29,795 nucleotides of DNA from a virus (Duplodnaviria > Heunggongvirae > Uroviricota > Caudoviricetes), in the IMG/VR virus record IMGVR_UViG_2703718802_000001, one strand, 5' to 3'. The position numbers are program-made. Positions 9,001-15,000 of the stretch are shown piece after piece. The stretch's first letter is position 1; every line of letters starts with the position of its first letter.

Positions 9001-12000
9001 CACAATATTTAGAAAACTAATAGTGCCATGTGCAATTTTTAAGATTTTGTTATTAATTGTGGTCGCACCTTCCTTTTTGTGTACTTTCCGTATAGCTCAC
9101 AGGATTCTGGGTACAAAAAAACCCGCGCATCAGCGGGTTAAGCAGCGTGGCAATGTAACCACTCTTATCATGATATGCAGATTTTTACGATCGTAAACTA
9201 TTTTTTCGCTGATAAAATACAGAGGTTCTCCCTCCCGGCAATTCACGCTCAACATACCGATCCATCTCAAGCCTCACTCCCAGCATCATCAGCATGCCTT
9301 CAACAATCCCCTCCGCTTTGTGAAGGCGTTTACCTATACAGGTGTCAGAGCACCCATGTTTCCGTGCCAGCGCCATGAACGTCTCCCCCAACACGTAATA
9401 ATCAACCAGCAAGTCATGCAGATCGCTGTTGTTCCTGTTAAGGCGAGCCATACACCCGCATATAATCATCGCGTCATCGTCACAACACTGTGGACGTGAT
9501 TTTACTTTTTCGGGGATCAGCCTCTTAAATCCGGCAGCAATGGGCGACCATGTAACATCCTCATAGTTATTTGCCGCCCATGCACCCCAGCGCTCAAGAA
9601 CCTGCCGGATATCACGCATCAGTATCTTTACCCCATCCGCGATGAACCATAAGGACGCCATTGACGACGGCGTGCTTTTTCGCATCTTTATCATCAATGT
9701 ATTTTCTGACTGTGGCACGATTGCAGTTCAGTATTCTGGCGACTTCTGTCTGATTTACCCTGGTGCAGATCAGTAATTCAGGTATCGTTTGAATTTTAGC
9801 ATTCATCAAATGTTCTCCAGTTCGGTGATTTTTATCCCCACTCTACCGCCAGGCACTTTCACGCCGCGAATTACGCGAATGTCATCGAATTGCTCGTCGT
9901 CTTCCGCAAATCCGGCGTGGATAAGGGAGTCGAGTAAACCTTTCAGGATGTTGTCGAGGTCGCGGCGGCGGGAGTCTGGAACGTCTGCGATGACTTTGAT
10001 ACGGAGTCGTGATTTGGTGAAAATGTCTAACTTGAGTTGGCGGATGATTTGCTGAACGTCTTTTCGGTATTTCTGGCCTTTATCGCTGATGTAGTATTGG
10101 CTTCCCCGTCTTCGCCAGTAGGTGTTCAGCGACGGCGGATATGGAAGCACAAACTGATATTCGTTCATGGCTTAATCTTCCCCTCCTTCAGCAGTATCGC
10201 CTGCGTCCTGATCACGCCTTCGAGGTGGTAAAGTCTGGCGTCTTTGTTGTCGAGGTTATGGGTGCGTCGGTCGATTTCATCGTGACACGCGCTACAAGCC
10301 CATGCGCCGATCAGGTCGTCAGGCTTCATTCCCGTTCCGCAAATTCCAGCCATCCGGTAATGTGCCAGAACTGTAGTTTCAGGGTTTCCATTGCATACGC
10401 CGTAAATACGTACCTGGCATTCTCTGCCGCGCGCTTCTTTGCGTAGGTTAGCCATTAAGCAGCCTCCCCTGTTACTTTCAGCATTCCGTTATCTAGCAGC
10501 TTTCTTGTCAGCCACTGTTGACCACGCCCGGTGATTTTTGTGGTGAACGATATCTGTATTCCGTGATTTGTGTTGACCGCTGTTTCTTTCACTGTGAAAT
10601 AGCCGCGATCCATATATTCCTGCATTGGCACATTGCGCCGGGAACCTGAAGCAATAAGGATTTTGTGTTCGCGCATCCACGCAAACAGTTTGTTTGGACC
10701 AATACCAACAACCTTTGCATAGTTTCCAATCAAAATTCCGCTGGCCTCGCCAACTCGATCGGCAAACTCAACTTTAGGTGCTGCGAGAGCAAGCTGTTTC
10801 TCCAGTTCAGCCTTCTGGTCTTCAAGGTCGGCCGCAAGGCGCAATGCCTCAGAAAAGGTTTGTGGTATTTTCGCGGTTGCCCCTTCGAGTTCTCGCCAGC
10901 GGTCAACAAGGCGAGCGGTGAATTCCGGCGACAACTGAGCGACGACAATAATGCTGTCTCGCTTACCTTGTTCGCCTTCGAATACATACACACGAAAACT
11001 TTGATTTAAGCCTAACCCATTGATTCTTCCACAATCCTCAATTTGAGGATGTCGGATAACACCATTTTTAGCCAGCATTTCGATAGTACGTTTCACATTG
11101 TCATGACGCTTACCTGTAAGCTCAGAGATTTCAATGCTGGTCATTTTGATGACGTTGCTATTTATCAGCTCGTTCATTGTCATGTCCTCTCATATTGAAA
11201 ATTCACCAATAAAAAACCCAGCCGAAGCTGGGTTTGTTAAGTTGTCAATTGTCAGTAGCGATGCAGTGAAGGCGGCAACTCTTTGTTCTTAAGCCTTTCC
11301 CATGCCAGAAGGTTCGTCGGCCCGTCAGGCTCATAAATATCTATATCCCGCGTGTGATTAATTAAAACGCCCCTCGCCCTCCCGATGATATACGAGAACT
11401 CATAGCCGTAGTCGTGGCATATGCCGGAATAGCCAGACTGAATCAGTTTTAATGCGGGATACAACTCACGGAACAATGCCTGTGAGCGGTTGGCATAATC
11501 CCACAGCCATACAAGGCTGTCTGTTTCTTTTGCGGAAAGCCCGTTGAGCTTCTTCTCTTGTTTGCCGATTAACTCTCCTTCAAGCGGAACGCGAGCAGCA
11601 AGTGACAGAGCTTCGGTAAACTGCTCCTCACTGATTTCTTTGTACGAACATCCAAAATGGGATTTCAGTGACGACCACATGGTGATCATCGCCTTCGCCT
11701 GTTTTTCTTTTGGCAGAGACTGACCGCGACTCATGACGAGCTGTTTAATAGCTTCCTGCTGTTCAGTGGTGATTTTACCAGGCAACGCCTTTTTAGCTTT
11801 GCGCGGGTTAACCACATGGCCTTTAGTCCAGTATTCGTAGAGCACATCGTCACACTCTTCCTGATACTGGATTACCTTGTCGCGGATTTCAGGGCGGACT
11901 TTGTTAGGACTGATGCTGTTCAACCAAGCTGCCAATTTTCGTAAAGCCATACAAATCATGGCTTGCACCCCACCGGCAGAAGGTATGGTGATTTCCACCA

Positions 12001-15000
12001 TACCCTTCGAGAAGCGTTGAGAAATCTTCTTATGTTGAGATTTCCAGTCTAGCCCCATTCCCTCAACGATAGGTTTCATTGGGGTGTACGGTTCGCCGTT
12101 GTGATTGACGACATAAAGCTCTGCGCCGTGAAATGGCACGTTGATAGTAGATACCGCTGTTGCTATACTTTTCATGTCAATATTTCCCGATCAGATTTGT
12201 TGATGTAGAAGCCTCGCCAGTTCCCGCTGTCGGGGCTTCGTTATTTTTAGAGAGCATTCCGCATTTTCTCCCGGTACTTCAACCACCAAGCAAGTCCCTG
12301 AACCAACACTGAGTTTTCTGACATCCCCTCTTCCTTAGCGATGCGTTTCACCTCCTCCTTAAAACGGTACGGATACCGAAGAGTTGTCTTCACTTCATTC
12401 TTTTCCATTGATTACTCCTTTTACGTAATGGCATTATGCCTTGAAAGCAATATGCCATCATTGAATATAAATAGCAATATGCCATCATTGTTTTTTTTGA
12501 GGTGATGCTATGGCTGAAAAGCAGGTTAAAGATTACGAAAAGTTTGTTGTGCGTTTCCCTGACGGGATGAGGGACGCGATTGCGGAGAGAGCCAAACGAA
12601 ACGGGCGCTCTATGAACTCAGAGATTGTGCAAATCTTGGGTGAAGTCGTTTATGGCCTAAATAGTGATAACGACGATTTTGAGAAGATGTTCGAGTACGT
12701 AACCACTGAAACCCCATCTGACGAGGATGAGTGGAGAGTCAGAGACAAGATGCTCACTCAGTTGATTTTTGAGATAACAGCCAGGTTAGAAAAGGAAACA
12801 TCGCGCCTTAAAGCATTGTTTAATATACGCTCCCCTGATGGTTTTTATGCTCATCCTATTCACAATGACAAAAAACCCACCTGACGGTGGGTTACTGTTA
12901 CTTGTCTGAATCATCCAGTTCGTCTGTTTTCACATCCTCAAACCTTGGATGCAGGCGATTCATTTTTGCAATAAAATCTGAATAGTCGTTAGATAGCTTC
13001 ATAATCGTAACGGTTGATGACAGATGCTCTCTTAATTTTTGATATCCAATATTTGGCGTCAGCCCCTGAAACAACTTTGTACCTTTTGAGGCCTTTACGT
13101 TCTGCTTTTTAAGCTCCTCAAGGATGTTTGGTGCCAATCTCTTGTAGACGATATCATTTGTCAAAACGCCAAAATACTGAGGCCGGAAGCGGGGATTTTC
13201 CGGCGGGTATTCTAAGCCCCTTAACCTGAAAAGCTCTTCATAATAATCAGCAGGAAATGTTGTAATATAAGGTTGAATTTCCTTTGCGACAAAGGCCTCG
13301 AGTATTTTGGCGAGCGCATCTTTTTCTCTATCTCGCTGGTACCCCGTCGCTTCATCAACAAGCGCTATTATTCCGACTTTAGCTAATGAGCGCACCAGAA
13401 TTTCAGCTTTCTTGGCTGTCTCTAACTGGTTTGGCCTGGTGATAGCGCCTGCCTCTCTTGCCTTTAAATAAACATCGCAGACAAGAGGTATTATGGATGC
13501 GTCATAACCTTCCTGGACGGAGCCAGTAATCGTCTTGTATTTGACCTTATTGATCACATCCATAACATCTTGATTTATATATTTTTTAAGGTTTGCAGCA
13601 TCCATAAAAGCGGGCATATTGATCACCCCCTCTTCTTGAGGTGCTCTACCCCCTCTTTGTGGTCGGCCAAATGCTTTAAAAACAGAAGCTTGTGATATGA
13701 TACGCCGTCCATTTTCGAGAACCGCGACATCTAATTCCGCATCACCGATCTTTAACTTTCCCTCATTCGCAGATACGGGCAATAAAGCTTTTTCTTTTTT
13801 TGCGGCAACAGCCTTTCTTGAGGATTCTTTTCTTTGCTCTGCTGTCATTTTTGCCGCGCGTGCCTTACCGCCTTTGGCCTTCCCACTAACATCATCATTT
13901 TTCATGAGCATATCTCGTGTTGTGATTGATAAGTCAATCATACACATGCACGTTGTAACGTGCAATATTTAAATATGCACGTAAATTGCGAATCAGATAA
14001 TGAGGAGACTTTCTCCCCCTTGCACTGACATCATGGTATTCTGCTCAAAACTAAATTTCTGGAGCGTTTCGTTGGAAGGTATTTGCAGTTTTCGCAGATG
14101 ATGTCGGTGATGCTTCTTTGCTGTCGCCTCATGCCGCCCTTCTGACGCCCTGCCCGATCGCCATCAATGCCGCTTTGGATACGGTAGTAAACATCCATCG
14201 AGGACTGATGAACGGTCGCCAAATCAGCAGCATGGAACCTTTGCTGTTTCCCTTCTTCTCCAGCCCTGTCGATGGTTCGATAAAATTAATCCGTCCATCA
14301 GTGATAATGCGAACTTCGTCGACACTCTCCAGAGCCTTGCTGAACCATCCGACTGACATATCCTCTGGCACAAGCATAACTACCGTCTGTCGATGTTGTA
14401 TGCACTGCTCAGCGGCTTTTTCCACCCACGGCCTGATATTGCTGTACGGTGGGTTATTCCAGATTGCACCGTGGCTTATCCACTCAGAATTTAGCGCGTC
14501 GTCGGCCTCAGTTAACCAGTGAGCGCACAGAGCATTTTTGTCGCTCGCTGCCGAATCCAGCCAGAATCCAAACTCAATATCCAGTGCATCAAAAAGCCAA
14601 AGCGGCGTTTGCCAGCAGTCCTTGTCGTGTGATGGCGTATTTGATTTGATAGTCATGCAGCTCTCCCTTTTCGTTGTGACCATTCATACTCTCGCCAGGA
14701 GTCATCACTCCACCGCACGTTGCGCTCTGAGCCGAACCAGAACATGATTTCGATAAGCTCAGTCATGCTGGCCTTCCGCATTTTGCTGGTACGCACGCCA
14801 AGCATGACAACGCCACCGTCGATACCAGGCACACTTCGTTGCTCCAGTTTTTTGGTCTTAAGCCACAGGGCAGTGAACAGGTCTTTCCAGTCTTCCGGCG
14901 CCAGCCGTTGACCATGCCATAGCACCTGACGCGAAACATCGTTCAGCATCGGCCACATGCGGTCATTCTGCGCTTTGCTGCGCTTGGGTTCTTTAACGTG

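Follow-up and report, generated by a model that had tools for sequence, protein, structure and literature searches.

What controls the antirepressor gene ant in the nin region of a Shiga toxin (Stx) prophage, and do the small genes around it form an immunity circuit like that of phage P22? The question matters because Stx output depends on how easily the lytic switch of the carrying prophage is thrown. We addressed it in a Caudoviricetes sequence of 29,795 nucleotides (IMG/VR record IMGVR_UViG_2703718802_000001; this whole stretch is hereafter the window), which corresponds to positions 1839412-1869206 of NZ_CP042350.1, the chromosome of Escherichia coli RM10410, a crow isolate. The sequence represents a Stx1a lambdoid prophage integrated at ynfG, adjoining ynfH/dmsD. 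A first, sequence-only reading had described a P22 immunity I (immI)-like switch embedded in a lambdoid nin region, and the RefSeq gene order (ninB ... roi, ybcO, rusA, ninH, Q, stx1AB) confirms this setting. On the minus strand, the prophage carries cro, cII, O, P, ren, ninB, a methylase gene, a truncated ninE, a P63C gene, the immI-like region, a Roi-type gene, ybcO, rusA, ninH, Q, and stx1AB, in this order. We consider it probable that positions 11214-12893 constitute a complete and apparently intact P22-type immI cassette, also known as the ant moron, which recombined into the nin region of the Stx1a prophage and works as proposed below. The genes, repeats, hairpins, homologies, covariation, and mosaic boundaries that underlie this view are directly visible in the DNA.

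The cassette contains ant, which encodes a P22-type antirepressor. The Ant protein shares 54.5% identity with P22 Ant at 100% coverage and 92.8% identity with the Ant protein of phage CUS-3 over the full length; the DNA identity with CUS-3, including the sar region, is 88.7%. Ant shares its C-terminal 104 residues, at 100% identity, with the Ant of many Stx phages, and no sequence match to Ant was found among the solved structures in the Protein Data Bank (PDB).

An arc-like gene lies on the same strand, 71 bp upstream of ant, with AAGGAG 7 nt upstream of its ATG. This 53-residue open reading frame (ORF) was absent from the earlier ORF track but had been picked out by the sequence-only reading, and it is present in RefSeq as the hypothetical protein WP_000414201.1. 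Since the protein is 96% identical to its counterpart in Edwardsiella phage GF-2 while the DNA of the block is only ~78% identical, the ORF is considered a real gene. The protein is matched by PHROG 582 (Arc-like repressor, E = 1.6e-10), and the profile of its family retrieves the PDB chains of P22 Arc as the first matches (E = 3e-6 to 5e-4). It has the same length as P22 Arc and shares 38% identity with it over 29 residues. K7, T9, and R11 are predicted to be the DNA-facing residues of its recognition strand.

The divergently transcribed mnt-like gene, the second repressor gene of the sequence-only reading, was likewise confirmed. GAGGTG is located upstream of its ATG, and the protein scores 61.3 bits with the Pfam Arc model (PF03869), compared with a cut-off of 20.4. 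Its ribbon-helix-helix (RHH) domain shares 40% identity with P22 Mnt, in residues 2-43 only, and its closest solved relative is AmrZ of Pseudomonas aeruginosa rather than Mnt (PDB 3qoq, E = 3.9e-7, 51% identity over 47 residues). A fold search with the model of the protein also placed AmrZ and Arc on top, with E-values that are weak for so small a domain and serve as corroboration only. In the AlphaFold2 (AF2) model, helices are formed by residues 20-31, 35-48, 56-66, and 72-107, and the last of these, a C-terminal helix of 36 residues, probably mediates oligomerization. The Mnt-like protein is the positional and putative functional analogue of P22 Mnt. The features of the locus are summarized in Table 1.

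Table 1 Positions of the immI-like cassette features and neighboring genes in the window, with the basis or context of each.
Feature	Position	Strand	Basis or context
Roi-type gene (Rha + KilAC), 242 aa	10455-11183 (RefSeq start 11177)	-	Pfam; backbone neighbor outside the cassette
t_ant, intrinsic terminator	11235-11214	-	Downstream cassette boundary; 9-bp stem, TTCG loop, T6 tail
ant, P22-type antirepressor, 307 aa	11252-12175	-	Pfam P22_AR_N, E = 5.8e-45; P22_AR_C, E = 1.9e-23
Psar (predicted): TTGATA, 17-nt spacer, TG-extended TATACT	12141-12169	+	Within the first ant codons, directed away from ant
sar-like antisense RNA (predicted), ~73 nt, two stem-loops	12176-12248	+	Complementary to the ant start codon, ribosome-binding site, and arc-ant spacer
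arc-like gene, 53 aa	12247-12408	-	Pfam below cut-off; PHROG 582; family profile against PDB
Divergent control region, 101 bp	12409-12509		Spacer between the arc-like and mnt-like ORFs
O1, perfect palindrome GGC-ATTAT-GCC, GGCATTATGCC	12430-12440		~+3 to +13 of predicted Pant, where O_mnt sits in P22
Direct repeat 1, including O2 (AGC-AATAT-GCC, 12446-12456)	12446-12463		O2 overlaps the predicted Pant -10
Pant (predicted): -35 TTGCTA (12477-12472), 17-nt spacer, TG-extended -10 CATATT (12454-12449)	12449-12477	-	Prediction only
Pmnt (predicted): -35 TTGAAT, 16-nt spacer, TG-extended -10 CATCAT	12461-12488	+	Prediction only
Direct repeat 2, including O3 (AGC-AATAT-GCC, 12473-12483)	12473-12490		O3 overlaps the predicted Pant -35 and abuts the Pmnt -10
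mnt-like gene, 124 aa	12510-12884	+	Pfam Arc, E = 7.8e-17; N-terminal RHH domain
Hairpin terminator between the convergent mnt-like and P63C genes	12874-12893	both	Terminator scan; better T-run on the minus strand
P63C-domain gene, function unknown	12898-13947	-	Pfam P63C; possible passenger of the same insertion
Truncated ninE	14055-14132	-	Upstream junction of the replaced segment; RefSeq pseudogene; CB9615-backbone homology resumes at 14055

The spacer between the two repressor genes contains a palindrome and two direct repeats, as the sequence-only reading had reported. The 18-nt repeat AGCAATATGCCATCATTG occurs in two copies with zero mismatches, 27 nt from start to start. By our estimates, the chance expectation is ~1e-7 for an exact 18-mer repeat within 101 bp and ~0.09, a borderline value, for the 11-bp palindrome alone. 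The palindrome and the repeats had been taken for two kinds of operators, a distinction that does not hold: the spacer carries three copies of one motif, [A/G]GC-N5-GCC. Apart from these, the pattern [AG]GC-W5-GCC has one further site only in the 29.8-kb window, both strands counted. The sites are retained in relatives with diverged flanking genes, and a locus in Intestinirhabdus, for example, has the same O1.

The protein that reads these sites is suggested by AmrZ. In the AmrZ crystal structure, K18, V20, and R22 read GGC-N5-GCC with a 5-bp A/T-rich linker, and the protein binds as a dimer of dimers (PMC3325190). The recognition strand of the Mnt-like protein, K11-F-V13-V-R15 (KFVVR), corresponds to the K18/V20/R22 strand of AmrZ, and O1 has the architecture of an AmrZ site. 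We collected 70 loci encoding Mnt-like relatives, and the 130 nt preceding the mnt-like genes were inspected in loci L015-L079. The association between strand residues and half-sites was then evaluated in 56 loci with a recognizable strand, including the earlier cassette loci; these loci are related to one another, and the p-values are indicative only. The K-M-R strand was accompanied by GTC-N5-GAC in 14 of 18 loci, compared with 1 of 20 for the V class (Fisher p = 5e-6), and the K-V-R strand by GGC-N5-GCC in 8 of 20 loci, compared with 2 of 18 for the K-M-R class. Strand variants with N and T accompany other sites, and a spacer of ~100 bp typically has three sites. There is an apparent RHH recognition code, in which the choice of GGC, GTC, or another half-site would depend on whether V, M, N, or T stands in the middle of the strand. 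Comparison of the cassettes further showed that the same Arc type combined with different Mnt types has different site sets. Since the strand matches the AmrZ type and the sites change with the Mnt type, we assign O1, O2, and O3 all to the Mnt-like protein.

In P22, O_mnt is located at +1 of Pant, and O_arc lies between the -35 and -10 elements. By the same division, O1 would be the operator of the Mnt-like protein and the two 18-nt repeats the operator(s) of the Arc-like protein. The repeats indeed share an extra ATCATTG tail that is absent from O1. In addition, the K-T-R strand of the Arc-like protein keeps two G-contacting residues, and the LWY24 cassette shows that K-T-R is compatible with GGC-N5-GCC. 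However, sites 2 and 3 vary with the Mnt type at constant Arc type (window versus GF-2 versus LWY24), cassettes with a common S-Q-R Arc differ in their site sets, following the Mnt type, and the ATCATTG tail partly coincides with the -35 and -10 elements of the predicted Pmnt. We regard a P22-like division of the sites as conceivable but doubtful, and favor the Mnt-like protein as the reader of all three.

The predicted promoters Pant and Pmnt overlap back to back, as the P22 promoters do, and O1, O2, and O3 would cover the +1 region, the -10 element, and the -35 element of Pant, respectively. The distance from the end of the Pant -10 element to the arc-like ATG is 40 nt, compared with 37-45 nt in 19 related cassettes; the counterpart distance is 39 nt in a P22-type phage, where the best candidate is the known Pant. 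The predicted Pmnt is located 21 nt before the mnt-like ATG, and the distance is the same in most relatives. The spacers also resemble those of P22 in length, at 101 bp (arc-mnt) and 71 bp (arc-ant) compared with 90 and 68 bp.

A further component, overlooked in the earlier note, appears to complete the immI set: a sar-like antisense RNA with its own promoter. Psar is the sole sigma-70 match at >=9/12 in 10300-13100, its -10 element is kept in all cassettes examined, and the predicted RNA ends with a hairpin and a T-run at ~12248. The predicted fold has a minimum free energy of -26.4 kcal/mol (z = -5.3). In an alignment of 16 cassettes, compensatory changes occur in 9 of 17 pairs, and 93% of the cells are paired, compared with 36-57% in controls on the same alignment with the partners slid. 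A purpose-built covariance model gave exactly one match per cassette, at the same relative place, in 35 loci, 19 of which were outside model building; it gave no match in the Stx-type ant-roi region without arc and mnt (L014). The Psar -10 element is built from ant codons 2-4, both in the window (12164-12175) and at the same position in 16 cassettes, which therefore seems to account for the M-x-S/I-I/V-A start of Ant proteins with unrelated N-terminal domains. With the homology of Ant, the Arc profile, the RHH domain of the Mnt-like protein, the gene order, the predicted promoter geometry, and the sar-like RNA, the proposal that the layout mirrors mnt/arc-ant of P22 is well founded.

The two RHH proteins have also been given names such as partition protein and plasmid stability in some PHROG and Joint Genome Institute (JGI) annotations. 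The corresponding toxin-antitoxin or partition reading was rejected in view of the consistent linkage of ant, sar, and the terminators to these genes across the 35 loci.

The downstream end of the cassette bears on the further proposal that the switch drives two tandem antirepressor genes. The genes for the 307-residue Ant and the 242-residue Rha/KilAC protein do follow arc, but the strong terminator t_ant stands between them, and the Roi-type gene also occurs in phages without arc and mnt (PMC3430580), so that a tandem pair driven by the switch is not supported. Sequences homologous to the t_ant region follow ant in CUS-3 and in the P22-type phage SF11. The ant-roi region is 95.6% identical in DNA to its counterpart in the O55:H7 strain CB9615, which is without arc and mnt. 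The antirepressor label of the Roi-type protein is a domain name only; Roi of HK022 is known for its effect on lytic growth in integration host factor (IHF) mutants, not for antirepression (PMC3430580).

The same reading had inferred a second, repressor-independent induction route, which is speculative, as neither a LexA box nor a recognizable sensor or signal input was found. No match to the LexA box (CTG-N10-CAG) is present in 10000-13200, and a Gifsy-type, LexA-controlled antirepressor under SOS control was rejected on this ground. One could still propose that arc, ant, and roi form one switch-driven operon with two antirepressors and an induction route that does not depend on CI cleavage: the genes lie near one another in a common orientation, both downstream proteins have domains named antirepressor, and without a LexA box the control would be SOS-independent. 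This proposal is nevertheless unlikely in our view, given a terminator homologous to the immI end of P22-type phages between ant and roi, an ant-roi pair that occurs without arc/mnt in the common Stx backbone, a Roi homolog with a different known role, and the failure to find a signal-sensing element that could trigger derepression.

How the cassette came into the nin region can be traced from its homology boundaries. The backbone comparator CB9615 carries ninE, a 234-residue ant, roi, and ninG. Homology to this backbone covers 10448-11566 (95.6%) and resumes at 14055, inside ninE; 11211-12239 matches CUS-3 (88.7%); and 12160-12634, a segment of 476 bp comprising sar, arc, the operators, and the N-terminal part of mnt, is 99.2% identical to cassettes in the tail regions of myovirus-like E. 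coli prophages. These boundaries indicate that, via recombination within ant, the cassette took the place of the ninE 3' end and of the initial two thirds of the resident ant. All ORFs of the cassette are open, which, with the 99.2% identity to the copies in other E. coli prophages, makes it apparently intact.

At the upstream boundary, the mnt-like gene is closed by a hairpin facing the early operon (12874-12893), and E. coli KCJ3K291 matches 26 bp of this terminator region at 100% identity. The last residues of the Mnt-like protein, KKPT, are encoded by the stem of the terminator, AAAAAACCCACC, after which comes TGA (window 12870-12893), and the KKPT ending is common to most Mnt-like proteins, the C-terminal domains of which are otherwise unrelated. 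Since the codons of the stem end unrelated C-termini, the terminator seems to double as a conserved recombination joint. In both the window and KCJ3K291 (L006 3688-4656), a P63C gene runs convergently with the mnt-like gene, and the 26-bp terminator is common to both. The P63C proteins of the two share 29% identity at the same position beside the mnt-like gene, and the P63C gene may be a regular passenger of the ant moron. The truncation of ninE, exactly where the backbone homology resumes, appears as the scar of the insertion of the P63C gene and the immI cassette. Directly downstream of roi there is another mosaic joint, where ybcO (DUF1364) and rusA (window 9757-10447) take the place of ninG of the CB9615-type backbone.

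Among 5,426 complete E. coli genomes, the exact mosaic was found in 1, and draft O113 and O157 genomes contain the same Mnt-like allele. The cassette type also occurs in other nin regions (SCU-113, 99COLEC, PhiR5_1, and JLK-2012), in Edwardsiella phage GF-2, in the tail region of Stx2 phage 1717, and in many Enterobacterales, and GenBank records of relatives are already labeled as Arc-like repressor and Ant. In phage 1717 (L004 1828-2173), the mnt-like gene is frameshifted into ORFs of 66 and 72 residues, with arc and ant open; if this frameshift is real, the Ant protein of 1717 would be without a maintenance repressor. Two contigs labeled Chryseobacterium sp. 18061 (L018 and L022) carry enterobacterial-type cassettes, one with operators nearly identical to those of the window. 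The label is doubtful, and contamination or a mixed assembly is possible.

In P22, Mnt maintains the repression of ant in the lysogen, and Arc and sar limit the burst of Ant upon infection (PMC11016777); the roles of the immI parts have been described (PMC11016777, PMC2629481). For the window, homology and layout are our basis for inferring that the operators are bound, that the promoters are used, that the RNA is expressed, and that Ant acts on the CI repressor. In a lysogen, Pmnt would supply the Mnt-like repressor, and an oligomer of RHH dimers on O1 (+1), O2 (-10), and O3 (-35) of Pant would keep arc and ant silent. When the Mnt-like protein is missing, as in the infection of a naive cell, Pant would fire and produce a burst of the Arc-like protein and Ant. 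The Arc-like protein would then close the control region again, and the sar-like RNA of ~73 nt, started inside ant and antisense over the ant ribosome-binding site, would limit the translation of Ant. Ant would bind and inactivate the CI-type repressor of this prophage (WP_001274760.1), and possibly those of co-resident lambdoid prophages. Since the cassette has the same orientation as the PR operon, N-antiterminated transcription is expected to yield Ant after induction, with early transcripts reading through the terminator at 12874-12893. The Ant protein made after induction would reinforce the lytic switch and Stx1 expression, in line with the proposal for Ant of phi24B (PMC3064807). Transcripts from Pant would mostly stop at t_ant, short of roi and Q. 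Outside the immI-like cassette, the prophage has more antirepressor-like genes downstream of the lysis genes, namely a second gene with an antirepressor N-terminal domain and a gene for a Rha-family regulator (window 1394-1936 and 2733-3302, minus strand).

P22 immI serves secondary immunity and anti-immunity and is not a pathway through which induction responds to a signal (PMC11016777). The cassette in the window most likely confers secondary immunity on the lysogen, provides anti-immunity during infection, and reinforces induction. A bolder idea, which we put forward only tentatively, is true bipartite immunity, in which the Mnt-like repressor is a second, RecA-independent lock on toxin release. 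Its loss or titration, for example by superinfection with a phage that has the same operators or by transcriptional interference from PR, would derepress Ant and lead to the induction of this prophage and of heteroimmune lambdoid prophages, releasing Stx without DNA damage; the portable RHH code would be a by-product.

Alternatively, the cassette may be a hitch-hiking moron that is intact but whose Ant is blind to the CI of this prophage, so that it acts only on other phages (by anti-immunity, or by exclusion via Mnt) or is neutral. Its high mobility, its presence in unrelated phage types, and the recent origin indicated by a mosaic in a single complete genome fit this idea. On the other hand, the C-terminal 104 residues shared with many Stx phages belong to an Ant type that, in the nin region of phi24B, has been proposed to promote the efficient induction of its own prophage, from a knock-out/complementation assay of late-promoter activity after induction (PMC3064807). 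P22 Ant is also broad in its action and inactivates lambda CI in addition to C2 (PMC11016777, PMC3064807). We judge a cassette without effect on its own prophage to be unlikely.

Several points weigh against the reading of the locus as a working P22-type immI cassette. That Ant of this cassette may bind the CI of this prophage is argued by analogy, and in a Kapi1 lysogen with a similar locus the expression of mnt was not detectable (PMC12922286), by which the rules of P22 may not fully transfer. With the Pfam Arc model, the 53-residue protein scores 17.5 bits, below the cut-off of 20.4. The C-terminal half of the Mnt-like protein is without sequence similarity to P22 Mnt, and a monomer model with a predicted TM-score (pTM) of 0.44 allows no more than a guess at its oligomeric state. 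When cassettes with the same Arc type and different Mnt types were compared, and the reverse, no motif followed the Arc type cleanly and a separate operator of the Arc-like protein was not located; its K-T-R strand, with both guanine-contacting residues kept, may read the same GGC sites. Taken alone, the association of K-V-R with GGC is weak (p = 0.07, from loci that are not phylogenetically independent). The Pant hexamers TTGCTA/CATATT fit the consensus less well than those of P22 and were unreported by the standard scan, and the Pmnt candidate was likewise unreported by the default promoter scan. The Rfam model of sar (RF00262) matches 12177-12243 over its full length with 28.5 bits (E = 0.013), which is under the gathering score of 43 bits, and we therefore argue the homology of the sar-like RNA from context and covariation.

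In most Stx phages, ant in the nin region is unregulated, whereas here it lies under two putative repressors and a predicted antisense RNA. Should the circuit operate as it does in P22, the silence of the prophage would require a second repressor besides CI, superinfection immunity would gain a second specificity, and other lambdoid prophages sharing the cell could be cross-induced by Ant. The immI ant moron moves among P22-like, lambdoid, and myovirus-like prophages, with junctions in ant and at a terminator that doubles as the last codons of the repressor. A literature search, with most subscription journals outside its reach, found no paper describing an immI cassette in the nin region of a Stx phage. 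The cassette is a known mobile module in a new place; its parts and logic are those of textbook P22, with no new mechanism. Full immI control of ant in a Stx1 prophage, an AmrZ-type operator layout with three sites, and a sar-like RNA conserved across the wider family are modestly new.

Compared with P22 immI, the window has counterparts of the same five parts (an mnt-like gene, predicted Pmnt-Pant, arc, sar, and ant) in the same order and orientation. The likeness extends to predicted divergent overlapping promoters, similar distances from the -10 element to the ATG, a two-hairpin antisense RNA from inside ant, and a homologous terminator after ant. The two systems differ in the recognition strand of the Mnt protein (K-V-R, of the AmrZ type, versus H-N-R in P22), in the operators (three related GGC-N5-GCC sites versus one 17-bp O_mnt and a distinct 21-bp O_arc), and in the Pant hexamers, which are weaker here. 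They also differ in location: ninE and roi flank the cassette in the nin region, whereas P22 immI belongs to the late operon, with genes 16/sieA on one side and the tailspike gene on the other. That the ant moron is mobile is known from earlier work (PMC2629481), and since the moron is mobile, the different location is no functional criterion. The ant moron of CUS-3, epsilon34, and others is likewise a mobile unit around ant, bounded by a promoter and terminators (PMC2629481). CUS-3, however, has two mnt genes and no annotated arc (PMC2629481), whereas the arc-operator-mnt block of the window is of the type found in myovirus-like prophages.

The ant-roi pair of Stx phages (phi24B, 933W-type phages, and CB9615; PMC3064807, PMC3430580) occupies the same position between ninE and ninG/Q, with the same roi and the same 104 C-terminal residues of Ant. 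In those phages, however, Ant is shorter with a different N-terminal domain, arc, mnt, and the sar-like RNA are missing, and ant is a plain delayed-early gene. AmrZ (3qoq; PMC3325190) has base-contacting K-V-R residues identical to those of the Mnt-like protein and the same site type, GGC-N5(A/T-rich)-GCC; oligomerization by the C-terminal domain is predicted for the Mnt-like protein and has been suggested for AmrZ. AmrZ is a chromosomal global regulator with no partner arc, ant, or sar, whereas the Mnt-like protein belongs to a phage cassette.

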